Shown in pieces: positions 25,127 to 54,429 of a stretch of DNA of 64,000 nucleotides (the first letter of the stretch is position 1; each line of letters starts with the position of its first letter). Position numbers and translations under genes: made by a program. Under the pieces are notes generated by a model. The model did no database searches. It saw only the letters and a list, made by a program, of their open reading frames with translations, and was not told the origin of the DNA. Source of the DNA: Spizellomyces punctatus DAOM BR117 (lineage: Eukaryota); assembly GCA_000182565.2 (NCBI GenBank), contig KQ257459.1; one strand, given 5' to 3'.

Positions 25127-26381
25127 TCATCCTCCATCGGCTCTTCTTCTCACAATTTCCACACTCAAAAAATCCCTTGCGCAAATGACATCCTCGTTCA
25201 TAAACGTTCCAACAGCCAAAGCTCGTATCTCTTCCATAATCTGCAAACTCTCTTCAGAAAGGTCCCCCTTGTAACGACTCGAGAAATGGTTCAGAACCAA
25301 TTTCCGAGCCCCAACCAGACGCGCAAAAGCACCGGCCATCTCAGGGGTGGAATGGCCGTGGGATATCGTGGATTCTTGGACTGAGGAGGGAGTTTGTCCG
25401 CTTGCGAGGTCAGCCTTGAGGCAGGCGTTGGTGGCTTCGTGTATAAGGAGATCAGAATCTATTGCAAGATGAATAATCGGAGACGGGTCGTTTGTGTCGC
25501 CCAGAATGGTTATTTTGCGACCGGGAGTGGGAGGTGTGAGGTGCTCTTTCAGAAGGAGGTTTGTCCCGTCTGGTAGGGTTAAAGATTGTTGAGACATGAG
25601 CTTGCCGATTAGGATGGACGGGTTTTTAATTCCTTGCTCTGCTAACGCCTTTCGGTTGCGCTCAAGATGGGGTTGCAGGGTGCTAATGTTAATGTTTCCA
25701 GGGTGTGGAGGCTCTTGGATAACGTAGCCGATGCACGGTACGGTGTGTGCAATCGGCGCGGCCGTTACGGTCATATCAGTTTCGGGATCATGGAGAACGG
25801 ACCAGTGGCTCTCGTTGGGATGCGCTGCGTTGCTACCAGAAGTTAGTTGTATATCCCGTCCTGCAATCTCATCATTGTGCAAAGTTTCGCTGGGAGGAGT
25901 GGATTGGTCGTCCGGAAAGTGAAGCTCGTGTACTGTATACCTGCATTAAAATGGTGGTGTCGGCAATTCAGATGTGAGAGAGCGAAAGGGTTATCCCGAT
26001 GACATACCTGCATCCCAATCTAGAATAGGTAGACTTTAAAGCATTCCTTATATACTCTCTTGTCCCCTTTGGCCCAAAAATCTCGAATTTCATGTCCTTG
26101 TCTTCACCAGGACACCACCCCCCAGCAGCCTGGGAAAGAGTGCACAACAGACCCGGAATACCAAAGCAATGGTCTCCATGCAGGTGTGTTACGAAAATCT
26201 TTTCCACTTTTCCTGCTTTTAGATCGGATTGGATGATTTGGTGCTGTGTTCCTTCGCCTGCATCAAATAGCCAGATACGCCCGTCGAATCGCAGTGCGAG
26301 GCTCGAGTGGTTTCGGGTTGGACTTGGCTGGGCGCTAGCTGTGCCGAGAAACACTATATCAATGTTTCCAATTGTTGGCAT
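25127..26381 (-). CDS. Short-form ribonuclease Z (tRNase ZS / ELAC1-like), 2 coding exons
   Basis: FLGTASAQPSPTRN, FDAGEGTQ, THLHGDH, GDT, HEAT, HST and NHFSSRY motifs in a single MBL domain; intron ~25941-26006. Confidence 0.92.
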
Positions 26382-31554: not shown

Positions 31555-31654
31555 NNNNNNNNNNNNNNNNNNNNNNNNNNNNNNNNNNNNNNNNNNNNNN
31601 NNNNNNNNNNNNNNNNNNNNNNNNNNNNNNNNNNNNNNNNNNNNNNNNNNNNNN
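31555..31654. other. Assembly gap (100 N), preceded by low-quality homopolymer-rich sequence from ~31420
   Basis: Run of N in the sequence. Confidence 1.
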
Positions 31655-35856: not shown

Positions 35857-36200
35857 GTCTGGACATGGTGAACATGTATGACGGCAGGCATACATGTGAA
35901 TCATGTACAGACTTGATCCTATCGTCGTATTTACCATTCAAACATGGCAGCAACATTGTCTGAACATGGTGAACATGTATGACGGCATCCACGTTCAGAC
36001 TTGCTCCTATCGGCGTCTCTTTACCGCTCAAGCATAGCAGCAACATTATCTGAACATGATGAACATGTATGATGGCAGGCATGCATGTGAATCATGTACA
36101 GACTTGCTCCTATCGTCGTATTTACCATTCAAACATGGCAGCAACATTGTCTGAACATGGTGAACATGTATGACGGCAGTCATACATGTGAATCAAGTAC
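35857..36200. repeat. Tandem ~100-bp palindromic (hairpin) repeat array, left part
   Basis: ACATGGTGAACATGTATG recurs at 35863, 35964, 36054 and 36155 (periods 101, 90, 101). Each unit contains an inverted repeat. Confidence 0.95.
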
Positions 36201-36738
36201 GCTGTTCAGCGAAATCCCAGCCTCTCTACTTCCTAGAGCTCGTCGAGCTTTCGTCCTTTCACGTTTTCATAAGGAACTGTTTAGCATTACTACCTTGGAC
36301 GTTTTGCCGCTGGTTCCGCCATCACTGAGGACAGAGGCGACAGGGGAGCACTGGCACAAAGCGAAAGAGGACTTATTGACGGAGATTGTTAACGCTATTG
36401 GCACGCAAATTCGAACTTGGAGTGGAAACAACATTGACCTATGCTTATCTGGAATAACAGACTCTCCCTTGTTCTGCAAGGTGGAGCAACTTGCCACACA
36501 TCTCGGCCGTACGGAACAGCTGATGTCTGAACTCGAAAGCTCAAAACAATTAGCGAGGAAGAGAATGTTTTTTTCTTCCAGGCCATGTTCATGTGGGAAT
36601 GCACCATCACCCGTCTGCGCTTTTGTAGAATGTGTTGTTGGTCAAAGTATTGTATGGGACATGGACGTTGCCGTTATCGAGATGATGACGTTGACGAATG
36701 GGACCGCCTCAATGAGGAATTTTGTTCGTAGAATATAA
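36201..36738 (+). other. Open reading frame of unknown function inside the repeat-flanked insert; start not defined
   Basis: Non-repetitive part of ORF 36094-36738. The ATG given in the ORF track lies inside the repeat. Confidence 0.35.
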
Positions 36739-36951
36739 AAACTTGCTTACGTGACCAGAATACAAAAGGGCTGTGGGATGACTCGGCTGAGTCATCTTCC
36801 ATTGTTCTACAATGATATAAACGGTGAAGAATCTTGTGTTACCGGGGATTGAATTGTATTTTTTGTGTTACCGGGGACTCAAGAGAATCATGCACGTGAT
36901 GGCATGGCGTGAAGGGATATAACATCATCATTGCAACCTTGGTCCCAGCGA

Positions 36952-37713
36952 AAAATGCGAAAAATGCGACTGCTGTTAGAAATTCTCGATGACCTCTTTT
37001 CCGCCTACATGTTTCTGGGTGACACGATTTACACTGTGGGAAGGGTCTTGAAAAGTACGATCGGCGGACACGAACAAACGAAGCAAAAATGGATCGATCT
37101 GTTGGAAAAAAACTGGCAAGACTTCCCAGACGAGGATCGCGCGGAGGAAATAGCGGAAGGCAAAGCGTTTTGGGATCAGGAGGCAATCAACACGAACCTA
37201 GATCTCCACGACTTGATATACGCATTCAAGGCGAACTGGGACACTCACCAACCTGAGAAAGTCATCACGATTTTCGCCGAATGCCTGGCTCCGAAGAGGC
37301 AATTGGTACTTCATTGGGCAGCGCAGGTCATGAAGATGTATGGCATTTGTTATTTGAACTTGAACAGGTTGGGCCCGCCCGGGTTCCCAGATGGATGGTA
37401 TATTGTGAAAGGTCTACTAAGGGAAGACGAAGTGACGGAGCGCATGTCTTTCGAACCCATTGAGGAAATACAAGTTGGCCGATTCATTTTGGAGGTACTT
37501 GGTGCATATCTCGTCAAGGTGAAGGGGGCGACCAGTGACGAGATGACGATACTTGTGTCACTCGTTGATAAAGGAGGCATCGTATGGGATTTAAGTTGCA
37601 AGTGTTGGATGCCGTACACTTACGATCAGACGAAGTCCGAGGAGTTATTGATGCGGGGTATGATGGGATATGCTACTGATGGAGCGGGGAAAAAGAAGGA
37701 GGAAACTGAATGA
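36952..37713 (+). CDS. Intronless orphan protein, ~253 aa
   Basis: Long ORF with globular-protein composition in an otherwise ORF-poor region; ATG at 36952; no family recognised. Confidence 0.6.
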   Translation, partial: KMRKMRLLLEILDDLFSAYMFLGDTIYTVGRVLKSTIGGHEQTKQKWIDLLEKNWQDFPDEDRAEEIAEGKAFWDQEAINTNLDLHDLIYAFKANWDTHQPEKVITIFAECLAPKRQLVLHWAAQVMKMYGICYLNLNRLGPPGFPDGWYIVKGLLREDEVTERMSFEPIEEIQVGRFILEVLGAYLVKVKGATSDEMTILVSLVDKGGIVWDLSCKCWMPYTYDQTKSEELLMRGMMGYATDGAGKKKEETE

Positions 37714-37723
37714 AATAATGGTC

Positions 37724-37877
37724 GACTTGCTCCTATCGTCCTATTTACCGTTCAAACATGGCAGCAACATTGTCTGAACATGGTGAACATGTATGACGGC
37801 AGGCATACATGTTCACCACGTACAGACTTGCTCTTATCCACGTCTCTTTACCGCTCAAGCATGAGCAGCAACATTGC
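37724..37877. repeat. Tandem ~100-bp palindromic repeat array, right part
   Basis: Same unit as 35857-36200. Hairpin 37772-37827 has 24-bp arms (22/24 paired) and an 8-nt loop. Confidence 0.95.
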
Positions 37878-38118
37878 AACGAGTGGGTTGACCGGGTTTG
37901 ACAGAGCGGACCTACCGCCATCCCAACTAGTATCGAGTATTTCATGGGACAGATAATGGCAACACTTGTCCGATGAACACTTTTGAGTTGTGGTTGAAAT
38001 GATTGCAATTCCAATGAAAAAAAAAAAAAAAAAAAAAAAAAGTTTAAACCGCGGCTACATCTTGAACGGCCATACGACGATATAAAGAGAAGAGTCCTGA
38101 TCTGGTTCCCAAAACAAG

Positions 38119-38126
38119 AAAAAAAA
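38119..38126 (-). terminator. Pol III terminator (T8) of tRNA-Trp
   Basis: A8 on the + strand, about 21 nt beyond the tRNA 3' end. Confidence 0.7.
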
Positions 38127-38147
38127 GGCAATCTCTACCCGTGGGGA

Positions 38148-38219
38148 TGAGGCCTACGTGATTCGAACACGTAACCTTCTGATCTGGAGTCAGACGCGCT
38201 ACCGTTGCGCCAAGGCCCC
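38148..38219 (-). tRNA. tRNA-Trp: tRNA-Trp (CCA), intronless, 72 nt
   Basis: GGGGCCT TG GCGC AACGGTA GCGC G TCTGA CT CCA GA TCAGA AGGTT ACGTG TTCGAAT CACGT AGGCCTC A folds into a complete cloverleaf. Confidence 0.97.
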
Positions 38220-38610
38220 CATATATTCCCTACATTGTCATCCACTGCCACCGTTGCGCCAAGGCCCCGTATGAACTATCCTCAACATGAACAACTCGTC
38301 CCCTCGCCAGCCGCTGCTACCGTTGCGCCAAGGCCCCCATATATTCCCTACATTGTCATCCACTGCCACCGTTGCGCCAAGGCCCCGTATGAACTATCCT
38401 CAACATGAACAACTCGTCCCCTCGCCAGCCGCTGCTACCGTTGCGCCAAGGCCCCCATATATTCCCTACATTGTCATCCACTGCCACCGTTGCGCCAAGG
38501 CCCCGTATGAACTATCCTCAACATGAACAACTCGTCCCCTCGCCAGCCGCTGCTACCGTTGCTCAGCTACCGTTGCACCAAGGCCTGCCGGCCTTGGCGC
38601 TACGGTAGCT
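38198..38610. repeat. 118-bp tandem repeat (3 identical units plus a partial), each carrying two copies of the tRNA-Trp 5' end
   Basis: Units start at 38198, 38316, 38434 and 38552. ACCGTTGCGCCAAGGCCCC at 38201, 38250, 38319, 38368, 38437 and 38486. The array ends in an inverted pair at 38565-38610. Confidence 0.95.
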
Positions 38611-38733
38611 TGTTTCTGAGGTCCCCCGCGGCGATGTCAGTGCATATCTCTACATTGCCGATATCTAGATTGCACAAGAAAATGGTCCCTCGACACAATG
38701 TCCACTTGCTTGGGTCGTCATCGGCTGCTACTC

Positions 38734-38783
38734 AACCCTAACCCGTACCTAATATCAAGTTTAACCCTAACCTAACCCTAACC
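38734..38783. repeat. Interstitial telomere-like (TAACCC) repeats
   Basis: AACCCTAACCC...TTAACCCTAACCTAACCCTAACC; degenerate echo at ~38905-38942. Confidence 0.55.
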
Positions 38784-39056
38784 GCAGCAATATCAGTCAT
38801 CATGATGCATATCTCCACCTTGCCAATAATCTAGATTGCCATAGATAACCGGTTCTGCTCCTCCCCTTACACGATATCCACTGGCATAGGTTGTCATTTA
38901 CTGCTACCCAACCGTAACCCGTACCTAATCTAAATCTAACCATTCTCCTCCACAAGAGATTCCTCCCGGTAGGCAGGTAGGGGGGGTGCTTTTGAATCAA
39001 CTGGTCATGTTCACAACCACATTCACAGTCACGTTTACGCCTGTTGGAATGAATTG

Positions 39057-39460
39057 ATATCATCGGAAATCTTAGAGGATGGAAACGTCGCGACACCATT
39101 TACATGCGCCAGCAACATTTAAAGACCTCATCCCATTTCTTAATGAGCGTTTGCAATAGAGTTTGAACAGTGCCTTGCTGCATATTCCAATGACAACAAG
39201 TGCAGGACTCGGGTTGATTCTCTACCCACTGGATTCCTAGACTTCCACGGTCGCGTAAGGGATCTCATCGGAAATGCCATAAGGATGGAAACGGTGCAAA
39301 CCCATTTACGTACGCCAGCACATTCATGACCCCGCCCTTTCTTGATGCAAGTCGGAAATACTGTTTGAATAGTGTTTTGTTGAATATCCCAATGGTAACG
39401 AGTGAACGAGTGCAGTAGCAGGACTGATTACTCTCCACACTAGATTCCTAGACTGCCATA
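39057..39460. repeat. Diverged ~205-bp tandem duplication
   Basis: TCATCGGAAAT...AGGATGGAAACG...CCATTTAC...CGCCAGCA...GATTCCTAGACT present twice. Confidence 0.8.
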
Positions 39461-39509
39461 GGTTGTGCGTGTTTCACGCATCCGATGGAAACTTGGATAA
39501 CTCGGCCAT

Positions 39510-39930
39510 TTCGTAACTTTTCGACAAGACCAGAACGGTTTTGAAAAGCCCTGAATCGTGGCTATAACCTTGTTGTAATGCTTTTCTAGCTAATATATTT
39601 CCCTGCACACCAGATCCACATGCAAAGATCGTCATCCGCTGCTACCCATCTATGTCGTAGGGTTTTAGATGAGCTTAACTTGGCGAATTCGTAACTTTTG
39701 GACAAGACCAAAACGGTCTTGAAAAGCCCTGGATCGTGGCTATAATCTTGCTGTAACGCTTTTCTAGTTAATCTATCCCCCTACACACTAGATCCAGTTG
39801 TAAAGATCGTCATCCGCTGCTAGCCATTCATGTCGTAGGGTTTTGAATGGGTTTATCTTGACGAGCTTTGTAACTTTTTGAAAAGGCCAAGACTGGGTCT
39901 GAAAAGACATGGATCGTGGCTGTAACCATT
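39510..39930. repeat. Diverged ~178-bp tandem repeat, about 2.4 copies
   Basis: GTAACTTTT...GAAAAG...ATCGTGGCTRTAA near 39513, 39691 and 39870. Confidence 0.88.
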
Positions 39931-40172
39931 GAAAGCAGACCACTTGAGCGTCACTGTTGCCAGAAAGTGCCACATGGCGTTCCTGTATTGAACAACCCGG
40001 TGCATCGTCCCCTTTCCCCTTCCTCCTCTCTCTTTGAATGTTCCTAAGGCTTGCAAACGGGTGCCCCTCGTCTAATAAGACTACTTTTTGCCGTTGATGG
40101 GGGGCATAGGTTTGAACTTTGTTCGGGACAAGACGTCTCTCCCCAGGTTTTATCGCCTCCTTTGCATTATGT

Positions 40173-43100
40173 TCACTCCGTGGTGATAAACCTGACTGCG
40201 TTCATGGCCATCAGATCTGGGCTGTCGGGCAGCAAGGTGACATTGTCACATATCTGTTTGGCTTGTTCCGAGAGTACTATGAGAAACAAGGAAATGTCTT
40301 CCGCAATTGCATCTCCAAAGTCGTCTACCAACACCCAGACCCTCCCAGTCTTCTTGGAGGTCCCCCCAAAGCCTCTGGATCTCACTTCCAGACTTCCAGA
40401 CAAGAGATAGAAAACAAGTATCACACAAGTCCCTTTCGACACCTCGACACATTTCAACAGACTATCAAATCCGACATAGGACAGGAAATCAGTGTGTGGA
40501 TCATTATTGGGTGCTGCATATAATTCCCAAAGTGTATATCAACTGTGAAGACGTTGTACGACTGAGAATTACTGTAATGGGTCTACTTTTATGCAATCCC
40601 TTGAAAAAGGTGACTATTCATAATGATACTACACAGCTCGTTAAATAATGAGGCCTTAACCAAACCCTTTTCCACACATTACATTGCTTGCTCGATAGAT
40701 ATTCCCAACCCTGACCCGAACCTCGCTGATCCATTTCCAACAACTGTCCATCATCAGCATGAACTGGCTCGAAACTGTCTGTTGCATACATGTATAAAGT
40801 TAAATAATCTACCACCTCTTCTTCGCATCTTAACATTGAACGCGCGCTGGAATTGTTAATAACGACACTTTACATCTTGTTGACAATGATGATGGTAAAG
40901 GCTGGTACATGAGCAAACAAGGGGGTCTAGTCTGTGTGCGTAGACATGTCGTATCAACTGACTTCAATGGCCAGGCTTTAATTTATGTAAAAAGAGCGCC
41001 AGAGTCAACGCCTACCTGCCCGCTCTCCACTGCCCCGCTACTACCCTACTAAACAGGTTTTCTTTTGCAATCTATATTACTGGCCATATAGAGCTGCGCA
41101 TGCCTGACAAATTTCCCTACTATGCATTATAGCAAAGGAATTCTGTAGGCAAAAGTTTTCTTACCTGCATATGGTACCGATAGAGGATGTCAATTTTGGA
41201 GATATTGTATATATGAAGATAACTCCAATGGGATTCCTTTTGCAATTCAAGTTATCGACCATTTAGAGAATGCGTGCACTCAACAACGTGTCCCTAATAC
41301 ACATTATAGTAAAGAATTCCCTAGACAAAAGTTTTGTTAGTTCCTTTGTCTCTAGTTAGTTCGTTAATCAGTGCTTCCTAGCGGCATATGATATATATAA
41401 AAGTACGCGATGTCCATTGAGAGACCAAAGGTCTCACCGCAATTGCGTAAAGATATCCTCCTGCTCTTCGTCATCTGGACGGCTACCCCACTACATGTAT
41501 CGACTTGGTGAGTATTCTTTATTAGAAATGTTTCACCACATGGGAAGAGTACCAAATGCTCTACTTGGTGGACCCTTGAGATCTCTCTGCTTTCAGCTTG
41601 GCCATCTTGTCCTCTAATTCGCCTTTCTTCTGTTCTACCACTAACACCGCCCCATTGTCAAAAAAAAGGATCTCATAGATTGAGCCGGCATTCCATTTAT
41701 GAGCGAGATCTTTCTTCGCCTCGTCTGCGGCACGATTCTTATTAGGAACCCAATGAGCGCGGGTTTGCACGAATTCATCAATCCTGCCCTGGCACTCTTC
41801 TAGGGTTTGGTATCCTTTCTCCTGCGTTTTGAAATCGAAAACGACTTTTTCCGAAAATTGAATATCTGCGATCTCGCTGGAGAATTTGGTTTGGCGATTT
41901 CAGTACATGAACAGGCGAACGGTCGACCGTAGTCGCACCTACATTGGTTGCCCTCCAATTTCAAAGGTGTTTCCGATAATTGCCGCACGCTGAGTAGCGA
42001 AGTCCACTTTGTTGTCGGTCGACATGTCAAAAAAGATAATTATGGACCCCTGTTGTGGAGGGTAGGGGGCGATCTGCAAATCGAGTTTCGGTGCTGCCAA
42101 CTTTTGTTGCAGAATTTTGCGAATGGTATTTCTCAACGCATCTTTAAACTCGGGATGACGATCGAAAAATTCCCTTTAGGTCTCTAGGTAAATATGCACC
42201 TGGTGAGCGATTCTAAAAGATGTTCACATCGAACTCACCAGGCGTCAATACACTTCAAGACTACTCTAATTATAAAGTTGATCATATTCGGCTTTGTCAA
42301 TGCAGAGGATTATGTAGGTCTCCTTTAGTCGGCTGGAAGAAAAACTCAAGTTTACACGAAATGTCTTTTCTGGGGACGAGGAATCCATCATTCCTTTTAT
42401 CCTCTGCCAAGCTCCATTCGTTCACCAATCTGCTTCCGACCTATACCCTGATGTTTGCATCATTCTTTTTCATCTACCAGCACCGGATTTTTAGCAGGTA
42501 ATTATGCTTTACCAATTGAAAAGGTTTTAACAATAATGGCTTTTGCCTTGCAAAAGCTGGCAAACGCTTTGTCAATGCTCTTTGTCCTTCACATGGTCAT
42601 CAGCAGACACACAAGTTTCATGATATGCAAGGGTATGTTGTGAATATTCATACTCTTTTCCTGCTTCCTGGACCGCCTTTGGTTGAACGGCGCCTTTTGT
42701 CTTGTATGTTGTGACGTAGATCTTGAGGAGCAAAGCTAGTACACGCGTTTCCTTTCATAAAGTCAGAGTAATCCACAAAGGAAGCATTGAAGTTGATTCA
42801 ATAATAAAGTCCGCCAAAATCACCACGTTCTTATCTTCAATTGTGGGGGAAGTTTATTCAAAGTGATAGAAACCTGCCTTTCAACTTGATAGTGTGCTGC
42901 TCCGCATAAGGTACACAAGCAAAGGTGTCGTCATCTCTGGCCAACAATCTTTAGGAACTCGGTGACCGGAACCTTGTCCCCTAGTAAAAAAAATCTCAGG
43001 CCCATGTTTCTAAGTTGCATCAAACAAGGATGACAGATTGGCGGATATACTTGGGACTTGGTTGCTGCAATGGTCGCATACTAATTTCGCACTGCTGCGG

Positions 43101-43400
43101 TGATCAAGAGCGACGAAGACTTGATCGGTATATCTACCACTCAAAGTGGTAGTGTGCTCTTTCAGCAGACAGAACCTTTTCTCCTCGTCATGGAGCTTAA
43201 CACCCCAAAAGAATTTCTTAACGATATGTGTCTTTTCCCTTCAGTAGTTATATATGGCGAATGGATTCCGGCAATTAGCCGTCGAATCTCTTCTTCCTTC
43301 AGCTTACCATCGATGTTTTCTAGGTCTTTAAGCAAATTCACGTACTTATTGAGAACACAGCTTACTATGTTGCTGTGATGCTGCATCTTTTATTTCAATG
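40173..43400 (-). pseudogene. Decayed long protein-coding gene of unknown family
   Basis: Chain of protein-like minus-strand fragments (43162-43386, 41939-42136, 41561-41770, 40618-40836, 40173-40457). 41939-42136 and 41561-41770 share a frame and are separated by in-frame stops. Confidence 0.45.
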
Positions 43401-43853
43401 TCCTACAGATATCATGACCTACATATGCACCAGCAACATTTACGATCGCGACCTTTTGAAGACGTACATTAGAACTCGTATCGATGCATTCATCGGACAA
43501 ACACCGGGACTTCACTTAATGTGCATATCCGGGTACTCATGCATTCATTGCCGACTGATGCACTTCCGCTGCCATTGGATGTAGCGGTGAAAGTTGGAAG
43601 TCGAGCGGCATATCACCTTTAGATTTGCAGGATGGACCTCACAACTTTTCTTTCTCCCCTCATTGCTAGTTTGAACGAGCGGTTGATCTTGATTCACACA
43701 TGTATTGCAAATCGTCTATCGTCCGTATCCTTGATGTCACCGATCCAAGCTAAGCACCCCTATGACCCCCCTGGTTTTTTTCTTGTCCGGCCCCTTCCAA
43801 GCATGCCCGAGTTAAACCAGTCCTTTTCTTGTCCCAACTGAAAACATACCAAC

Positions 43854-45975
43854 ATGAACACTTGTTCGACCGAGGGGCCTTCTACGTCCCAAGAGTCGCT
43901 CCCGCGACGTCAGGTACTCATAAACGTAACTGGGGACGATCCAGACGACGAAGAGCAACAGGAGATTTTTAAGCAAGACGAGGCCTTTTGGAAAATAGTA
44001 TTTGACGCATTTGGCCAAGAGTGAGATCAAATGTTTTTGCCTGTTTGCTGCTGTCAAGCAAGGCAACTGACTATTCGGAGCTGTCTCGCTTTCCAGGCCG
44101 ACTGGCACATCGGACCCTCAATCTGCTGCGACCACCGGGGACGTCCCAGCAGCCTCACGTTTTTCTACAACCGATGACACTCTCGCTAAATTTATTCCTC
44201 CCCAACGATCGGCCACAGCATGTCCCAATGCTGCAAAAACGATTCTGAAGTATCTGCCCGGAGCGATAACATCCACGTTATATGAAGCGGAAAGTTTTGC
44301 GCCAACAGAGGTCATTCTTCTAGACCAGCCGACGAGGCACCTTTTGCTTGCCGTCCTTCTCTCTGGTGCTCTGAGCCGGGTCTGGTCCTCAATGGATATA
44401 ACAATCAATGCACATTCAGATGAAGATGGGAATTTTGGCTTGGCTGAAGGCACTCAGGTTTCCGTGGCTGATATTAGAGATCTCGCCAAAACACTGGACG
44501 TACACGATAGTCGTCTCCCAAGGGACATTATGGCTTGGATCAACACATGCTCTTCCCACGTTGACTTGGGGGATAGTTGGCTCGAACTGCCGTATTCACG
44601 ACGAATGATGAACCCTTTTTGCCCGCTGTCGGGGTAGCTGGTATTCTTAAACTATCGGACGAAATACCCAGTGACGAGCGCTTCAAAGAAACGAGGCTAG
44701 CTGCTGAATATGGACGGAGGAGACTAGTTCAGCTACTCGGAGAAACTGCGCTGGAAAAGATCCAAGGGGAACTACCTGACTATCCTGGTTTACGCGCAGA
44801 CGCTGTTAACATGATGCAGAGAATTGGGAAACTTAATCCAGTATCGTTTCCGAAAGCCAAGTAGGTTAAAGCAATCGTTCTACTCTACTATGCATGACGA
44901 AACTAACAACTATCCTATGCAGTGGATTCTACTCGACGCATGCTGGTGGAGGCGCTTGTACCGTTTACATCCACGGAGATGTGGCTGTCTCATTTGATAC
45001 TGGCCACATGGCATTTTTTGCAACAAATGCCTGGTTACTACTCCGCATGAGTGAAGTCAAGAAGTTTGTAATTATCGTCTCGCACATTGACTGTGACCAT
45101 ATGAACGGAGCAAAAGTACTGCTTGACTACTTGTCCGGCGACATTCGCTCCTACAAAGTTGAGCTTATCGCACTATAGTACGTAATGTTGTACCCTGGAT
45201 TGGTATTGCCGGGTTCTACTTTCTTCTCATTATACTGTAGCTTCAACTCCCCTGGTTCAGGCCACCTAAGTGAAGGTGTCCGTTCAGTGGCAAAAGCAAA
45301 ATGTGTGTTCAAGCTAGTGACCGAAAATCCCGACAAATTCAACATTTTGAGAACAGTACATATTCCTACAAGTAGCGATCCCACAAGTAGCGGCTTTGGC
45401 AATTTCGACCAAAAAATGAAACCTCTGAGCATTCCGACAAAGGTACTTTAATCTTGTCAGCTACTAGCATTGAATCATTGCTCATCCACTTGTAGCTCCA
45501 TTGCAAAAATCCCTGACCCTTCCAACGTAAAACCCTCCAAAAGTGCCGCATCACGGCGGCAGAAGGGACACTTATGATTCAGATGACCACGTTATAAACT
45601 TTTATAAGAAGGTAAGATGCCCAGATCTACCTGATCAATACAAACGGAGAGAGATATGGACATCCAGGTCAGTTACTCTGAGGCAATGATCACTGGATGG
45701 AAATCCTGTTCGTCGAATGCCGTTTTATTCTAGACAAGGACGTGGTGACAGCGATCATACAATCGATTGTTGAAAGAAGAAAGCGCGCAAGTATCCAGTT
45801 TACGCACGTTGACAATCGTGCAAAGAAGGAGGAATTACAACGACTCAAAAACCTCCACGACCCTTATGACTATGTAAACTTCCACTTGACACTGCGTGCA
45901 CAAACGTATGGCGGGCAAACGGGCTATTGGGATTTAATGCCTCCACCAATTCCCATTGCCACATCGCCACCATGA
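43854..45975 (+). pseudogene. Spliced gene for a caspase/CHAT-like domain fused to a ComEC-like metallo-beta-lactamase, disrupted by frameshifts
   Basis: ATG 43854; introns 44021-44096, 44861-44922, 45178-45240, 45443-45495 and 45668-45733. N-terminal ITINAHSDEDG...AWINTCSS; C-terminal SFDTG, SHIDCDHMNG, KVPHHGG, YLINTNGERYGHPDKDV. Frameshifts near 44575 and 45620, and a broken or shortened exon at 45496-45540. Confidence 0.75.
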
Positions 45976-46509
45976 TATATATGCCAGGTACCCTTCCTCT
46001 ATTCACTTCCAACTAAACTGCATCTCGTGGTAACCTTAACAACCCTAAGTACTTGGAAATTGGACCCCAGATGGAGGCCCAAGGAACTCAATCGATAACT
46101 ATAGATTAGCAAAACTTCAATGTTTGTGACGATTCATGTATCATGCGGATAAGAAACTGTAGTTTACACTGTAAAAGCCTGGAGTGGGTGTCAAATGTTG
46201 ACTATTTGCCACTTTGTCCGGTCTCTCTGTGCGTTGAGCTGATGCAGCTGTGAAAGGTTTGGGCAGCACGCAAGTACATTGTAGAAAGCAAGCGCATATA
46301 TGCACTTCTCTACTGTCGATCAAGCAACTAGAGTTGAGACGATTTGCAAGTGTGCTAGTTTTTCCGCTGCGCGTTCAGATCATCCCCTTGGACTCGTAGT
46401 GATCCAAACGTCATCGGCAAACTTACGACTCTAGTGTGATTCTTACATTGGCATTTAAAAACCACAGAAAGACAACCACCTCTAAATCTTGAAAACAACC
46501 CACAAAAGG

Positions 46510-46926
46510 ATGAAAGAAACAGACCAAGTCGTCCAAGAATTTCATAGCCTCGTCAACATGTCCCCATCCGAACTACAAGCATGGTTACAAACTGACGAGT
46601 CCCTAAACGTTGGAATGACAAGAGAGAATGAAGACGAAGCTGTTGGACATCAAAGGTTTCTGTAATTCATTCAACAATAGGCGGAATACATTGTACTCAT
46701 CACTAAAATGCTATTCATAACAAACAGTGGTAGAAAGATTATCGAAATCCTTGAACGGCAAGACCAATACACTGATCAAGATATTTCTCATATGCGGAAA
46801 GTGGTTTCTTATATTAAGCGGCATTTGGCTCAACGGCATCGAATCAAGAGTGGTAATGTTGAGCATACGAGGTGGGCTTATAGTTTAAAGAATTGGGGAC
46901 ATGATCCTGTCAAGGTTGAAGAGTGA
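46510..46926 (+). CDS. DUF3140-family protein, 2 exons
   Basis: EFHSLVNMSPSELQAWLQTDES...GHQS|GRKIIEIL...HMRKVVSYIKRHLAQ...WAYSLKNWGHDP; intron 46656-46727 keeps frame. Confidence 0.88.
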
Positions 46927-49060
46927 TTTATAGGGGTGGAATATTTTGGAGGAATGGGACGATTTTGGTTTTAGGATGGGAGGTTTTGATGTTGAAGATG
47001 ACGATTATAGGGAGTCTATTTTACGTACTTCATGTCCTGCTGTACAATGTTCATTTTGGACTTGACAGTGTAAACCGTTTCTTGTTAATTCGGCATCGCC
47101 TTTGAGCAGAATTTCTGTCCATCGCCGTCATTTTGATCAAGCTCCATTATCTCATCTGCAGCCTTTTATTCCAACTTTCCACTCCTCTTTAGCCGATCGA
47201 TCAGGTTTGCTGCATTCTTCTGCCGTCTCCCGAGGTTGCTATTCTCGTACATGACTTTGCTACCCTTGTTTAAAATAGCTGGTCCGGCAAAAAGGATATA
47301 AAGTTCGCCGCTGCACTGCCGAGTGGAATCCTATCAATTGCCTCCTACATTGAGTACGTACAAGGTCAACTGTGGGACACCCTGTACATTGAGCCAGTGG
47401 TATCGCCACACGGTGATTGGCACCATCGAGGACCTGCGAAAGCATCTCCCCTGCCATCCGCAGCGTTGTAACGTTTTAACTGAAAGAGGGGCGCCAGGAT
47501 CTGGCGACAACCTGCCCTCAAATACACCCGTGTACAATTTCTTGCAGCAAATCAACAATTGTGCGGTAACCTTCAAGAAATGGCCGACTTGAACGATTCA
47601 CGTACCATCCCGCACAATCCAGTACGATTCAGGGCAAGACATTGCGAATGAAAACCATATGGTACATCTCCCTGCGATACGTGGTGGTAATGGCATATAC
47701 CACATTCAATATTTCGTGGGTAGATCAGCGAGAGTTGATACCGGCAAGAGAAATCAGTGGCACTGTGTGAAAGCTGGGCACGGAGAGCAGTATCCCGTCC
47801 GACTCATTAGTTCGTGGTTTCTGCAGCCGGAACGAACATGAGATTGTCCTAGTCTCTCAAAATACTTGTTCTTCTGTCGTTGAAGCCCAATCTACTCAGA
47901 GACTCTGCAAAAGGGAGGTTAGTACAATTATTACATAGCCATTCACCTTTGATATCAAGTTACTAGTTTCCAATAGTGAGTATCTATCTAGAGTTTACCT
48001 GGAACATGGAATGCTGGAATATCTAAATAAAAATATCATTTCCTGGGTGGAGGTACTTTACCTCACCACAATTTCCTTTACGCTAATGTTTTCAAACATC
48101 CAATCCAAGTGAAAGACGACCATTGAAATCCATCTATTTCATCGTATCCGTTCAAACAGTCTCCGCCGCTTTGAGACTACTATACAGCACATACCGATTT
48201 ATTTCACCTTGTAGCGTATTACCCTAACCTGACAATTCTGCTTTTACGCATAGATACTTCAAGAGCCGGCCGCTGACAGCAGTATTCGACGACAGGCGGA
48301 CATTGTCTCCCACCTCATACACGGTACACTGGTCGAAGATGACCCCGTATCTGCGCTCATACAAATCGCACGACAGTGAGACCATCTGAATGTTGGGGAT
48401 TGAAAAGACAAAAGTCCAATGCTTCTGAATGCGATGAAAGGTAATGGATGTCATCCGGTTATGCCTTGGATATCAAAATGTTCGCATATTCCAGTCAAGT
48501 TCATAGATAATTATTTTTGTCGTTGGAATGACAGAAAGGTTCTACAGAATGACCCATTAATCAACAAACAAGTTGGAAGGCCCTGAGCGTGCATGTACTG
48601 TAATACCATCACGTGTTGATCGGAATGGACTTTTGTTTATAATCGTGTCTTTAGAGTACAGGGAGCATTGGGAGCACTTTACAGCAAAACAGAACAAAGT
48701 GGGCATTTAGGTGCGAGTACATAGGTAAAAAGCAGCCGGCACTTAACATGCCGAGTTTCCCAAGTATTATGGTCGAACGACCAAGTGACAATACACGCAT
48801 GACTAGCACGTTTTTGATAATACAAACGGTTTGCAAAAAAAGTAAAAAGAAACAAGCCATCACATCAACATGACAACATACTAGAATACCGAAAACCAAC
48901 AAAAAAAGCATACCAACACCAAAAACAAAAACAAAACAAAAAACACAGCTACATCAACAAAGTAAAAAAAAAAAATACGACTACAATACAATGCTACAAC
49001 CACACTATAAACAAACCCTAAAATCAACTTCCTATACTCTACAACAAAAAACCAATAACC

Positions 49061-52000
49061 TCACCACCGAAACATTCCCCATCCACACACCCCAACAACC
49101 AACCACATCACCCAAGCACCTCGCCCCTTTGAAACCCCAACCCCAAAACTCGACCCAACAAGCACTACACCAAACAAGAGTGGTATCTTGCCCACATTCC
49201 ATTGTGGGAATGCGTCGGGGGATGGATCATCATATACAAAAAGCGGGTCATTGAAATCATATTGAGGGGCCGTAAAGTGGTTTAAAAGGGATTTGAGGAA
49301 TGTTACGACGAGGGTTGTGTATTGGATGTAGAGGAGGAAGATGGAGAGGATGCGGAGGAGGGAGATGGCTCCGTCGGGGGTTGGATGGAGACTTGGGGAT
49401 TTTAGCACGGGGGGTGAAGGACTTGTCGAGGGGGTTGGAGGTTGTGTGTTTGTAATGTCGGGCGACGAGGGAGAGACGATTGGGCAGTCTTTGGGAGGAT
49501 AGAATGCGTCCGTGTCGATAAAGACCGCCGAGTCCACCCGGTCTAGATCCTTGGGTGGCAATTCGTGGTCCGTGTCAATAGTTTCGTCCATGGATGATCC
49601 TACAACAGGTGTTTGCATTACAGTGACGACAGATGGAACCGGCAAGTGGAGATGCAATTCCGCATTGACTTCGTTCTCGGGCATGTCGCATATTTCAGGT
49701 GCAATTTCACGTTCTCTAGTAGTATCCTTGACGGGCTCTACATTTGGAAATAAATCGTCTTCAGGCGGAAATTCAATATCTTCTTCATCGGAGGGGCCGG
49801 TAACTTCATCCCAGTTCCACATCAAATCTTGCTGTTCGTCGCTGACATACGAAAACTACAAATTCGAAAATAAAATTTAAGCAACAAGTCCAAAATTACA
49901 AGATAAGCAACACGGAACATACCTCATCCCCCTCCTCTTCACACCTAGCCCGCCACTCCTCATCCTCATCTTCACAGCTCCATTCCGATATCGTATCCAA
50001 AACATGCGGAACAAACGCCATCAAAGCATCCCTCGAAGCCCGGGGCTCAAAATACATTTGGTAAATTCGGCGGTCGTACGCATCGAGACCATCAATATCG
50101 TATTCAGCAGAAGAGCACGAGTAACTACTAATCTCAGAGGATTCATCCCAAGACTCAATGTCGTCGTCTTCTTCTTCCTCATGTGTGTCGAGGGGTATAA
50201 TTGTCGGTAGAAGGAGAGAATCACCTCTTTGGCTCTACGGGTTGAGCAGCCATTGTGTTGATAAACGACAAGACTGCTGCAGTAGGCGGTATACGATGAG
50301 CTCACCTGTCCAAATTCTACCAGATCCAAAGCACCCTGGTCCAGTAATGGATGAGCACGGCGGACCGTGACCATCTCTGCCTCCGTATCTGGTGTATCCT
50401 CATTGCAGGGCGGGTCGTGATCAGATGATGGAATCATGAAGCATTCAATGGGAATGCAGTCTTCTTTGACCGCATTTTGCGCCAAGATTGTTTTCTTCTC
50501 AAGACTGCCTTGTAGAACGGGAACGATCGAATCTATATGCAATTCCTCGGCAGGCCCATCGCGGGTCGCTTCTTCGTCCATGACCCATTCAACTACAGTC
50601 ATGCTGGCCCGCAAGTGGGGGACCACACAGTTTATATTCACGCTTTCCGCAGCAATCGTTTCTGCCTCCATTTCTACACCAGCGTCAGCAGATACAATGC
50701 AGCTGGCGACTTTAGGTAGGATATGATCCGTTTGCAGGAACCTAGTGCTTCCAGTGCGCTCCATCAATGTAACCTCCTCCTTCATCCATGCAATACTACG
50801 TTGTACGGAGGGTACAATCTCGTTATGATAAGGGCTGGGGACATCGTCAAGGATATTTGCATCGTTCTGGAGTTGATGCAGCTCGCTTTTCAAGACGGTA
50901 CTTACAGGTGCAAGATCTACTCGAACTGTTTGTAGAGCGTCCACCGGTATCTCATGAAGGCTGCCCACGTCCAAAGGAACAAGCCACTTTGTATTTAGTG
51001 GGGATATGGCCGCTTCCTTGTAGGCTAGAGCCTCTGGCGTCTTGTCCTGTTGGCAAAGAGCAGCGTTTTCAACTGGGCACATCCATGTTATTTTCGTTTC
51101 CGTGCTAGGGGCAAGTTGTTCCATCTCTACTGCCGCATCGGTTTCCACTGTATTAATGATTGCTTCGGTTGTTGGAAGGATGCAAGAGATGATGACTTCT
51201 TGGTTGGTTTCGAATCTTTCAACACTCTTCTCTGGCGTGGCATCCACCGTTGTCGCATGACCTTGTTGGACATTGAGAATGATGTGCGTGGATGTGGGCA
51301 CTGGTGCCTCGTGAGGACCGCAAGATTGCTCGCATGCTGCCGGGAGGAATGACTGGATACCGTCAAACACCGGGAAAATGTGGGCAATGTCCAAGCGTTC
51401 TGCTGGGGGTTCCAGAACAGCACCTTCTCCAGGCGGGGACTGGACGTCCCACAGGTTCCCCCGTGCCACATTTACAATCGGCGTCAGCGCTATGCTTTGC
51501 ACATTATTCATGTACACTGCGTCGCACGAACTATTGTCGTGCATATTGGACGTCTCTCCAATGGCAACAGGGAGGATGACGTTGGCAGTCACTGTCCGTG
51601 TATGCACCCTATCGACCTGGGCATCGCTGTCCACATCCATATCTGTTAACATCCCAAGAGTCAAAGGAATAAGAAGAGACGCGCGGGTGATAGGCACTGG
51701 TAGCGACTCTCTGGCAAGATGCATTTTAGCAACATCCGTCGAGACAACCTGACCGACAGCCCAAGGCATGTCGATGCCAGTTCTTTCCCCCTGCTGCTGC
51801 TTCCCAACACTCAAGACCGCACTCTTGATATCCACAGCTGAATCGCGCAATTTGAGAATAGGCCTGCCATTCTCGTCATCTTCAGGATCCCATAACGATT
51901 TCAGATCCAATGACTTGCCGTAGATGCTGCGTCTACGGGCAAAGGTGTCGGTGCTTTTACGGTCGAGGGGGACTTCGAGAGGAAGAAGGTGTACACTGGC

Positions 52001-52315
52001 GTCAATGATGGTGCTTTGCGGTCGGCTGGATCGACGTTCGGGTGGGACAGCGGATACAGGTGATTGAACGGCGGGGATGTCGTCACTACCAGTCCGCGAG
52101 GAAGGATTTGACGTTGGATGGGGCAGTGTAAACACTCTTGATAACGGTCGCTGTGGTCTGACATTATTCTCTGCAACGACGACATCAACGCTAAACGTTT
52201 TGCTCAATCGATTCAATCTCGCTTCCAAGACACAAGTCTTTGCGCTTAGTTCCTGGAGTTTCCTGCGTCGTTCTTCATAGACATTTCCACCGGTGACTTC
52301 CGGTCCAGATGACAT
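49061..52315 (-). CDS. Large low-complexity acidic hypothetical protein with C-terminal TM segments, multi-exon
   Basis: ORFs 50021-52315 and 49061-49825 with splice-like sites near 50305 and 49860-49921. Short N-terminal coiled coil; two hydrophobic C-terminal segments. Confidence 0.6.
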
Positions 52316-54429
52316 GGTGGGTCAATCATGCGTACACGACTGTCAAAAGGGACACTAAAGGGGGGGGGGAGGAAACGTCTAAAAATCTGTCAGTGCGTAT
52401 GATGCTTTTAATGTCGTTTTGGCCAGTGAGTGAGTAATGATGAAGAGCAGTGATGGGGCTACGATAAAATGGGCGGGTAACTCTCAAGGAGAAAAAAAGA
52501 CAAAAAACCAAGGGCAGAAACAAAGCAAACGACGACGACGACGAGGAGGAAGGGCGAGGGGGATCAACTCCTAGGTGTGGCTTAGCTTCACACTTGCAGC
52601 GAAACGTCGTGCAAATTGCACACTTGCAAAAATCTGTGTTTTTCTTTTTGGACAATATTTCCGAGCAACGAGATGGAGGAAGAGGACGAGGGATGGGGGT
52701 TAGGCTGCTGTAAAAACCTCCCGTCGCAATGGACATGTCTTTTGTATGTCTTTGTTGATAATATCAATGTACATGTGCATGTACAGATGGCGATGCACAA
52801 CAAAAAAAAGAGGTGATGTTGGTCCAGTCGTCGTCAAGGAAGGGGGGGGCAAAAGCAAAAAAACAAAAAAATCCTTCTCTCTGTGTGTGTTGCTTGCTGC
52901 TGCTGTTTGCTGATTAAAAAATCTTTATGCTCTTTTCCAATTGCTGGTGCATTATCTCTTTTTGTATCAATTTTATCAACGATTTTTGGAACTCCCATCC
53001 CCATTTGGGGATCCATTTGATTATTTGGGGAGTAATTGGAGTCGATTTTCAAAAAGGATGCTGGCAACTGGCATTTGGTAACAATGTGAAATGTTCCAAT
53101 GGGGGCGGGATACTCTTGCAAGCAAAGAAAGTTTGAAACTTTTGGCACATTTTGTATCTTGCCATAGCCGTTGTTGTTCCCCCCTCGAGGCGGGAGGAAT
53201 CTCGCACTTGTGATTTCCACATGGCCATAGGGGTCCTGGTCGTTGTAATCGTCCGAATGCAAACTCACCAGAATAGGGCTGTGCATTTTAGACGCCCGGC
53301 ATGCAGCATACTCCAAATGGTGCTGCTCCCCCGTTGGGGACCGCTACTGGTATATATCCGCCTCTGCACAAATTTACACCGACATTTGCAAATACAGATG
53401 TTTTCAGACGTCTTGACCATGGAAATACATGCATCTGATGTGCGAGATATTTTCAGCTGTACTCGTTCGCCTCTCCGCTTTCAGACTTAATGTCGTCTGG
53501 AGTTTACAGCGGTCGTTGCAGCCGATTGTGGTACTGAACTGGCCCGGTGCTCTCATACTCTTTGCAAAAGGTTGCGTTATCCTGCAAACCAAGCCAGTTC
53601 GACAGGTGCTTTATGAACCCATTGACCCAATTGATGGAAAGACACAGACTACACACTGGCGAAATGTCATCAGTACCATTCACCTTGTTGATCTTCACAT
53701 TTTCCAGCTGGTACACGTTTATTCCGAGTCGGGACAATGGCTTGCTTTGCAGGGTTGATCCATTCAAACAGTTGAGGAAATTCTGTGTCAAGTGAAATAT
53801 AACGCTGACAATGATACCTTGCACTTTTTCAGGAAACTCTTGACGAAATTGTAGAATGCCATGCACTGAAGCATGCGTTGGAGTAATCCCTGGAAAAGCA
53901 CACCTACTCCTGGAAACTTGGAAATTAGTTGAATAAATGCAAGTACACATCATTGCAATCTACATAACCAGTCCCCACTTGTGCATCTTCTTGGTGGACT
54001 TTTCCATGCTTATATTGAACAATATTTGGACTTTGCTCGGGACCCAAGGAAGGACACACTCATCCTGTTCAGCCTTTCAGCACATGTTGTTAAAGCAATG
54101 TTGACATGCATGGTAGCAATCTATGGACATGTAGCACGCAAAGCTGCAGGAGTGGTATTACATCACTGCAATCAGTGAAAACAAGGGTGCTTATCGCCAA
54201 CTGGACTCACCAAATTTATGGTAAGGATGTGTTATCACAAAATAGGACAAGGGCCAGTTGGGCATTGGCAGAATGCAAGGGGGTCCTTGAACCTAGTTGA
54301 AGTAGCCATGGACAATCTGCTGTGACGCACCAAAGATGAATTCCATTTTGATCCACCACCTTTTCGAAAAGACCGTTTTTGAGAAAACACAAAAGACAAG
54401 CAAAAGAATCCTCAAAATGCCTAATAGTT

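Follow-up and report, generated by a model that had tools for sequence, protein, structure and literature searches.

A probably decaying, intron-bearing gene of Spizellomyces punctatus with a C-terminal half resembling bacterial stand-alone metallo-beta-lactamase nucleases

We analyzed a predicted spliced gene at 43854..45975 on the + strand of a 64,000-nt window of Spizellomyces punctatus DAOM BR117 (the window is the whole stretch of DNA that was analyzed, and all coordinates refer to it). We propose, with a probability of roughly 0.6, that the locus is a decaying and probably non-functional gene, the C-terminal half of which derives from bacterial stand-alone metallo-beta-lactamase (MBL) DNases that resemble the C-terminal domain (CTD) of ComEC. 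Judged by profile comparison, the C-terminal half is a real MBL-fold domain that lies closest to stand-alone MBL nucleases of bacterial defense. The whole domain cannot be encoded today because frame breaks and stop codons sever motif V and the His-Pro-Asp (HPD) block, the Asp of motif IV is unrecognizable and the middle is shortened; the longest product that the locus could give is a truncated protein of 439 aa, which lacks motifs IV and V. The locus had been described from its letters alone (the original prediction) as a hidden spliced gene in which a caspase/CHAT-like protease domain is fused to a ComEC-type MBL hydrolase. The exon and intron layout of that description is present. The gene is not wholly hidden, since exons 1-5 are annotated as SPPG_06031.

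The C-terminal half is closest to MBL nucleases of bacterial defense

Passages of Tuck et al. 2025 (PMC12799240) describe the stand-alone defense MBLs HamM, Avs1a and CanC as similar to DNA-uptake nucleases, and as DNase proenzymes that two active-site insertions keep blocked; the activator is a trypsin-like partner protease or, at 'canu' loci, a caspase. To place the fungal domain we used its joined MBL pieces as query (276 aa, with X at the breaks). On the single exon that holds the HxDxDH motif, curated libraries gave sub-threshold matches to Pfam Lactamase_B (E 0.061), to NCBIfam Avs1a (E 0.043, 12.6 bits vs a cut-off of 420) and, in PADLOC, to LmuA (E 0.03) and RTasMBL (E 0.035). Searches of 401 Pseudomonadota genomes with the Avs1a and LmuA models gave five stand-alone proteins, for which PADLOC reports LmuA PDLC03854 at 166-273 bits, then Avs1a and RTasMBL. 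The profile of these five proteins (alignment A1), selected without any motif of the query, gave the fungal domain 41.5 bits (single-sequence E 4.9e-15), and the two best of 2000 shuffled sequences reached 14.9 and 6.2 bits. This score bears out the earlier proposal of a ComEC-like MBL of the kind found among prokaryotic defense effectors.

The alignment to the five proteins runs through VIIVSHIDCDHMNG...ALYFNSPGSG in a first block and KVPHHGG...YLINTNGERYGHPDKD...ASIQFTH... in a second, and spans the junctions of introns 3 and 5 and a 13-nt frame break. Across the intron 3 junction, VELIALYFNSPGSG is aligned to isvtdiwfNgPela. With homology crossing introns 3 and 5, the MBL half itself appears to bear introns, as had been claimed. 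SFDTG, SHIDCDHMNG and YFN align to the A1 invariants D30/G32, H56, D58, D60 and H61, and N84, respectively, with a Thr in the query at G31. KVPHHGG and YLINTNGERYGHPD align to motif V and the HPD block, in frames that are severed from the upstream open reading frame (ORF).

With A1 as query, 1880 proteins matched at E up to 1e-5, and the best 120 of them are all bacterial or metagenomic. Those with a name carry the title 'MBL fold metallo-hydrolase', a variant of it, or 'hypothetical protein', and two stand-alone relatives (P0003 and P0082) have the NCBI name 'ComEC/Rec2 family competence protein'. A profile of 120 further members gave the fungal domain 25.6 bits, compared with 3.0 bits or less for shuffled sequences, and pairwise phmmer comparison with 80 metagenome MBL loci reported 80 out of 80, with scores of up to 38.9 bits.

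We also compared the domain with ComEC itself, the CTD of which, according to passages of Silale et al. 2021 (PMC8579336), is a Mn-dependent nuclease in which Asp replaces one His of motif II and motif III contains Asn. The fungal domain shares the MBL fold and both of these residues, and it has KVPHHGG verbatim. A scan of prokaryote genomes for a KVPHHGG DNA pattern gave 120 loci; among 20 ORFs scanned from them, nine had Competence plus Lactamase_B (ComEC), two Lactamase_B alone, one TetR and eight no match. The ComEC-CTD profile, built from 34 MBL domains of this set, scored the fungal domain at 27.8 bits, or 12.8 bits with KVPHHGG masked (best of 1000 shuffles, 6.1), which is lower than its score on the defense-type profile. 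Unlike ComEC/Rec2, neither any piece of the fungal gene nor the annotated protein has the Competence membrane domain (PF03772). The signatures differ as well. The HxDxDH form of motif II, present in the fungal sequence, was found in 76 of 80 defense-type MBLs and in 4 of the 34 ComEC domains, 30 of which have HxHxDH instead. An aromatic residue-x-Asn after motif II (YFN in the fungal sequence) occurs in 54/80 and 0/34, and HP[DSEN] after motif V (fungal HPD) in 65/80 and 3/34, respectively. These counts separate the two bacterial groups and place the fungal sequence with the defense type. In a quick tree, 10 ComEC rows were separated from 81 others, including the query, with 99% support in the Shimodaira-Hasegawa-like approximate likelihood ratio test (SH-aLRT) and a long-branch warning. 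The fungal branch measured 5.63 changes per column vs a median of 0.7 and arose from a basal polytomy, unplaced among the trypsin-, CHAT- and caspase-linked clades.

Searches with the annotated protein (P0001, the 439-aa SPPG_06031 product) added little. Its neighbors in the ESM Atlas were of the Lactamase_B type at 0.90 (20 of 30 matches), which we treat as a lead only. It gave 0 matches to the PDB by phmmer at E up to 10 and none to plasmids by tblastn, and its peptides gave 39 pattern matches in prokaryote genomes, none of them related.

The MBL domain has a shortened middle and a broken reading frame

The original prediction noted that the usual middle xTGD segment is missing, and we find the same. 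The Gly-Asp of motif IV, which includes the metal-bridging Asp and is invariant in A1 (G196-D197), has no counterpart in the fungal domain; a loose motif IV pattern is matched only by SSD within a Ser/Thr/Pro-rich stretch. Motifs II and V are 103 aa apart in the fungal sequence, compared with 114-128 aa in the 34 ComEC domains and 166-256 aa (median 196) in 76 defense MBLs. The stretch is thus shorter than in 110 out of 110 bacterial comparators and leaves no room for motif IV or for the two gating insertions. Within this shortened middle, exon 5 carries a tandem duplication of 15 nt that is imperfect (45365-45394; cctacaagtagcgat / cccacaagtagcggc, 12/15 identical) and encodes PTSSDPTSSG. One candidate for a decayed motif IV strand of the LLTGD/LLLGDA kind, frame 1 of 'intron 4' (KGTLILSATSIESLL), fitted by eye in register and spacing and was rejected. 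The peptide scored -2.1 bits as motif IV, no better than shuffles; its insertion lowered the ComEC score from 27.8 to 27.1 bits, a value equaled or exceeded by 945 of 1000 shuffled inserts, and the defense-type score from 41.5 to 40.8 bits, equaled or exceeded by 1884 of 2000.

Five GT-AG introns of 53-76 nt are predicted. Introns 1, 2, 3 and 5 preserve the frame and candidate intron 4 does not, in agreement with the original count of four out of five. Intron 2 has canonical ends and is in frame, and exon 4 lacks a start of its own upstream of motif I, as expected if a single spliced gene joins the N-terminal region to the MBL domain. Translation of the assembled exons yields pieces A (215 aa), B (246 aa), C (27 aa) and D (94 aa). 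The frameshifts that had been placed near 44575 and 45620 are real (the latter lies in 45612-45624), and a third disruption is located between 45496 and 45530. Here, the frame obtained by joining 45442 to 45496 runs into a stop codon, and the KVPHHGG frame is closed upstream by another (Table 1).

In an exhaustive search for GT/GC-AG introns across the breaks, no intron of 30-600 nt led from exon 5 into the KVPHHGG frame. From the KVPHHGG piece, YLINTNG can be reached only via a 34-nt GTTATA...CCCAG intron or at the cost of the motif. All in-frame joins of exon 2 to exon 3 use the acceptor at 44576, and every solution excises the candidate Cys of the proposed protease.

To determine if the breaks are a property of the DNA, we mapped public reads to 43700-46100, as had been suggested. 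Two DNA runs (X17, 129 reads; X18, 274 reads) covered 30 of 30 bins, with no substitutions or indels listed, and contigs of a 2020 run (X1) showed 0 differences and no gap over 43798-44757 and 45025-45818, which take in every break site. The summed mean depth was about 11.5 at 44510-44590, 5.7 at 45482-45562 and 7.6 at 45563-45643. Because independent DNA reads agree with the assembly, the frame breaks are decay and not mis-assembly as far as public data show. Of the two possibilities offered originally, mis-assembly is therefore unlikely, and a pseudogene is probable, the breaks being upheld by reads with no rescuing intron. That the gene is truly intact and the breaks are sequencing or assembly errors is extremely improbable. 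Indel errors do occur at sites such as 44570-44576, with its run of five G, and the stretch near 45612-45624, but three separate errors within 1.1 kb would be required, the break bins are covered by two DNA runs with no insertion or deletion listed, and the 2020 contigs match over all breaks.

The public model of the gene, SPPG_06031, covers the 5' three quarters. The NCBI protein matches the translation of 44924-45175 with 100% identity, and we exactly rebuilt the annotated coding sequence (CDS) by script from exons 43854-44020, 44097-44499, 44577-44860, 44923-45177 and 45241-45451. The model sidesteps the 44575 break with a further intron, 44500-44576, and then reads into 'intron 4' up to a stop codon. 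It thereby lacks 25 residues that hold AWINTCSS and the whole KVPHHGG...YGHPD tail, the pieces of which are assigned by homology to the same ancestral domain. The frame breaks at the 3' end of the 44500-44576 segment, and since the segment exactly hides the frameshift, the annotated intron looks like a repair made by the gene-caller. Its acceptor is G-rich (TGACTTGGGGGATAG), unlike those of the other five introns. The present annotation would accordingly amount to a truncated CDS with a doubtful intron.

It remains an unlikely alternative that the annotated model is right and the gene alive, with 44500-44576 a true intron, the product a 439-aa half-MBL protein of non-catalytic or new function, and KVPHHGG/YGHPD a dead remnant in the 3' untranslated region. 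With its GT-AG introns removed, the annotated CDS stays open throughout; the extra intron (GTACAC...ATAG, 77 nt) is similar in length to the others and has a TTGAC branch-like site, and a few RNA reads fall on the locus. However, such a product would end past motif III and lack motif IV, motif V and the HPD block, all invariant in A1, and the acceptor at 44576 has 5/13 pyrimidines before the AG vs 8-11/13 in the other five introns. The RNA reads number 14, with no joints, and protein databases give no homologue to show constraint.

Several points weigh against a decaying gene of bacterial origin. The curated models match single exons only, all below threshold (E 0.03-0.23), and the significant scores come from our own small profiles on the joined read-through; in addition, the ComEC set was picked by the query's own KVPHHGG motif. 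The tree placement of the fungal MBL is unsafe because of its long branch. We infer acquisition from bacteria, and this origin rests on the finding of no eukaryotic relative among the best 120 of 1880 matches. The truncated 439-aa product might have a non-catalytic role. The DNA runs share a species label and are probably of the same strain, and so confirm the assembly and not the state of the species. Finally, the RNA run (X16) provided 14 reads among about 26.4 million records and no splice joints, and the introns are thus predicted only.

The N-terminal region and the question of a fused protease

The peptides quoted in the original prediction are all found in the translations: VLINVTG, EVILLDQPT, ITINAHSDEDGNFGL, AWINTCSS and AVFTT in the N-terminal half, and SFDTG, SHIDCDHMNG, YFN, KVPHHGG and YLINTNGERYGHPD in the C-terminal half. 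The caspase/CHAT assignment that was drawn from the first five is unsupported at the level of sequence: there is no library match, local profiles score at or below shuffles, and no in-frame intron keeps the Cys. The N-terminal region has no Pfam, NCBIfam or PADLOC family, with a sub-threshold exception in the N-terminal half (DUF4332, E 0.014, 16 bits, cut-off 23.2). Exon 2 (159 aa), searched by phmmer against 1.84 billion representatives, returned only the annotated protein, and the gene itself was likewise all that protein databases returned in the search for paralogues and homologues. Single-sequence AlphaFold2 models had a predicted local distance difference test (pLDDT) score of 36.2 for the annotated protein and 39.9 for exon 2, too low for the models to be used. 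The Atlas features of exon 2 showed low recognition (1954), unnamed clusters and DUF6642 on 23% of one cluster, a lead only, and no caspase-like family.

We nevertheless weighed the reading that the N-terminal half is a divergent clan CD caspase/CHAT-like protease (His162, Cys207) fused to the MBL as a single-chain death or immunity effector, canu-like and now frameshifted. We consider it quite unlikely. The candidate residues lie in INAHS (H162) and INTCSS (C207), both after hydrophobic stretches and 45 residues apart, a spacing within the His-Cys range of caspase-like proteases. The Cys lies inside the disputed 44500-44576 segment, 8 codons ahead of the frame break, and the annotated intron that would remove it is the one with the atypical G-rich acceptor. 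Direct comparison with proteases did not support the reading. Pfam CHAT (PF12770) and Peptidase_C14 (PF00656) gave no match at E up to 1 or 10. The remaining tests were made on the read-through N-domain (309 aa). With a CHAT profile of 30 domains from 151 genomes (90 with a match), the N-domain was unreported and 1604 of 2000 shuffles were reported, with an hhalign probability of 0.29%. A Peptidase_C14 profile of 15 domains (11 of 121 genomes matched) gave the N-domain -1.8 bits, equaled or exceeded by 1189 of 2000 shuffles, and 0.17% in hhalign. The profile of trypsin-like MBL partners (5 sequences) gave -2.0 bits, with 336 of 2000 shuffles at or above this score.

The bacterial relatives speak for the protease reading, as the MBL family of the C-terminal half is paired with trypsin-like or caspase partners that activate the nuclease (passages of PMC12799240). 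Among the 80 metagenome MBL loci, 16 of which have less than 1.2 kb on both sides of the MBL, 33 have a trypsin-like gene, four a CHAT gene and one a caspase gene (Peptidase_C14), and 42 have none. By Pfam, a 1083-aa Peptidase_C14 protein (105.8 bits) lies directly upstream of the MBL in L263:2710-7050; a CHAT (58.6 bits) plus TPR-S protein lies directly downstream of it in L244:5797-9003, followed by a Tle1-like phospholipase; and a CHAT gene adjoins the MBL in L257 and L249. The fifth case, L220:4268-7069 (+), is a single open frame of 934 aa, in which Lactamase_B occupies residues 23-92, CHAT covers 696-934 up to the contig end, and a Peptidase_M17_N-like stretch is also present. On its domain matches, L220 is a natural covalent fusion of a defense-type MBL nuclease and a CHAT protease, with the order of the domains (MBL, then CHAT) reversed relative to the fungal gene. 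In the quick tree the five CHAT/caspase-linked MBLs fall in one 30-row clade without trypsin partners (99% support); the fungal MBL is outside this clade, a placement that is itself unsafe. When the N-domain was compared by phmmer with the 1046 ORFs of the 80 loci, the 23 rows reported included none of the 5 CHAT/caspase and none of the 33 trypsin-like partner ORFs. One of these rows, L248:3365-4480 (+), scored 9.7 bits (E 0.03 over 1046 ORFs) and has the heptapeptide CSSHVDL in common with the disputed 44500-44576 segment; it encodes a polysaccharide pyruvyl transferase, does not lie beside the MBL and was put down to chance. An apparent N-terminal fusion, a 780-aa ORF around the MBL of L168, was discarded; its first ~390 aa are an Arg/Ala-rich open frame in GC-rich DNA and not a domain.

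A protease-nuclease effector, as envisaged originally, has a published bacterial precedent in the canu loci (described in passages of PMC12799240) and counterparts in L220 and L263, but a protease in the N-terminal half of the fungal gene is unsupported. A bolder version would make the locus the relic of a eukaryotic single-chain 'canu', in which a very divergent caspase/CHAT-like protease stood upstream of an ungated defense-type MBL DNase. A protease-nuclease defense module of bacteria would have gained introns, served as a death or immunity effector in an early chytrid and then decayed, with the annotated intron hiding the Cys. We regard this version as very doubtful.

Comparison with known systems and a possible history

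The defense MBL pro-nucleases (HamM, Avs1a, Lamassu- and DRT-associated MBLs and CanC; PDLC03854, PDLC02158, PDLC03805 and NF041809) give the best profile and pairwise scores. Like them, the fungal gene has HxDxDH, aromatic-x-N, K-x-P-H-H-G, [ST]-N-G...HPD and a C-terminal tail, and where they have a protease partner it has, in parallel, an extra domain. Unlike these proteins, which are encoded as separate genes, it is eukaryotic, has five predicted introns and is fused to an orphan region of ~290 aa. It further differs in its short motif II-V spacing (103 vs 166-256 aa), in having neither of the two gating insertions, in its unrecognizable motif IV and broken frame, and in exons that stay below the thresholds of the curated models. 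With the canu and other protease-MBL pairs it shares a nuclease of the same family and a second, possibly proteolytic, module, and the order in L263 (Peptidase_C14 upstream of MBL) matches that of the fungal gene, whereas that in L220 is the opposite. Unlike in these pairs, the fungal N-terminal region carries no sequence evidence of a trypsin-like, caspase or CHAT protease.

Returning to the reading that we prefer, a decaying gene, we suggest the following history. The C-terminal half would descend from the anti-phage effector family that includes HamM, Avs1a and CanC (in PADLOC, LmuA, Avs1a and RTasMBL), and, judging from the family, the ancestral enzyme would have cut DNA as a phosphodiesterase with two metals (Mn/Zn). 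After entry into the chytrid lineage the gene may have acquired introns and been extended at its N-terminus, and it may now be decaying. On this account the MBL half would have been in a fungal genome long enough to acquire spliceosomal introns, and one transcription unit would join it to the ~290-aa N-terminal region, which is without detectable relatives.

No fungal or other eukaryotic homologue of the nucleases is mentioned in the main text and one supplementary table of PMC12799240. No paper on SPPG_06031 was found by locus tag, and the locus is not described in the best-ranked literature on MBL with ComEC, fungi or gene transfer (best 15 of 511 matches) and on MBL with caspase, fungi or NLR (best 15 of 216). 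Protease-activated MBL nucleases have only lately been shown to be recurrent anti-phage effectors (passages of PMC12799240), and a chytrid copy with introns and an N-terminal region would be a further case of a prokaryotic defense effector entering a eukaryote, as well as a starting point in the hunt for intact copies among other zoosporic fungi. Against this, the present copy is of limited value in that it is a singleton, broken, almost unexpressed in the sampled RNA run and unassignable in its N-terminal half. Most likely the locus is a dead relic of modest evolutionary interest.

Gene layout and surroundings

The layout of the gene, from the start ATG at 43854 to the terminal TGA at 45973-45975, is given in Table 1.

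Table 1. Predicted features of the gene at 43854..45975
Feature	Position	Strand	Content	Remarks
Exon 1	43854..44020	+	Start codon and first 55 codons of the N-terminal region; holds VLINVTG	In SPPG_06031 model
Intron 1	44021..44096	+	76 nt, GTGAGA...CCAG; frame kept	Used by annotated model
Exon 2	44097..44499	+	Orphan N-terminal region with EVILLDQPT and ITINAHSDEDGNFGL (candidate His, read-through residue 162)	No family match
Disputed 77 nt	44500..44576	+	Annotated as intron (GTACAC...ATAG); reading on from exon 2 gives VHDSRLPRDIMAWINTCSSHVDLGD with candidate Cys 207	
Exon 3	44577..44860	+	LARTAVFTTNDEPF... and helical linker; stops short of MBL domain	
Intron 2	44861..44922	+	62 nt, GTAGGT...TGCAG, ACTAAC branch-like site; in-frame link from N-terminal region to MBL domain	
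Exon 4	44923..45177	+	MBL motif I (SFDTG) and motif II (SHIDCDHMNG, HxDxDH type)	Sub-threshold library matches, local profile alignments
Intron 3	45178..45240	+	63 nt, GTACGT...TGTAG; interrupts ALY|FNSP	Profile alignment spans junction
Exon 5	45241..45442	+	YFN (motif III Asn), then short Ser/Thr/Pro-rich stretch	Annotated CDS continues to TAA 45449-51
Candidate intron 4	45443..45495	+	53 nt, GTACTT...TGTAG; good splice signals, wrong frame downstream	
Broken linker	45496..45530	+	Spliced frame ends at TGA 45514-16; KVPHHGG frame shut by TAA 45528-30	
Piece C	45531..45611	+	NPPKVPHHGGRRDTYDSDDHVINFYKK; MBL motif V at 45540-45560	Aligns to K.PHHGS of bacterial families
Frame break	45612..45624	+	13 nt, GTAAGATGCCCAG	Below intron size
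Piece D1	45625..45667	+	IYLINTNGERYGHP	Aligns to ylIStNGslfnHPD of defense-type MBLs
Intron 5	45668..45733	+	66 nt, GTCAGT...TCTAG; interrupts Asp codon of HPD	Homology spans junction
Last exon	45734..45975	+	DKDVVTAIIQ...ASIQFTH..., MBL C-terminal tail; TGA 45973-75	Aligned to family tail as far as query residue 237-248

The neighbors in the window are ordinary eukaryotic genes (Cu-ATPase, F-box/LRR, MATH, TLDc, aminotransferase, syntaxin and ABC transporter). The 51 ORFs of at least 75 aa at 36-50.5 kb include no Pfam-recognizable protease, and the whole of 36000-50500 (~14 kb) is near-silent to Pfam, with only a DUF3140 exon at 46681-46923 (+) (64 bits) and one sub-threshold match. A 766-aa ORF at 50024-52321 (-) has no family. 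The window also contains a gap in the scaffold, represented by 100 N at 31555-31654, and a second, unrelated ORF of the MBL type at 25130-25945 (-), which matches Lactamase_B_2 with E 2.9e-4 and 21 bits (cut-off 27).

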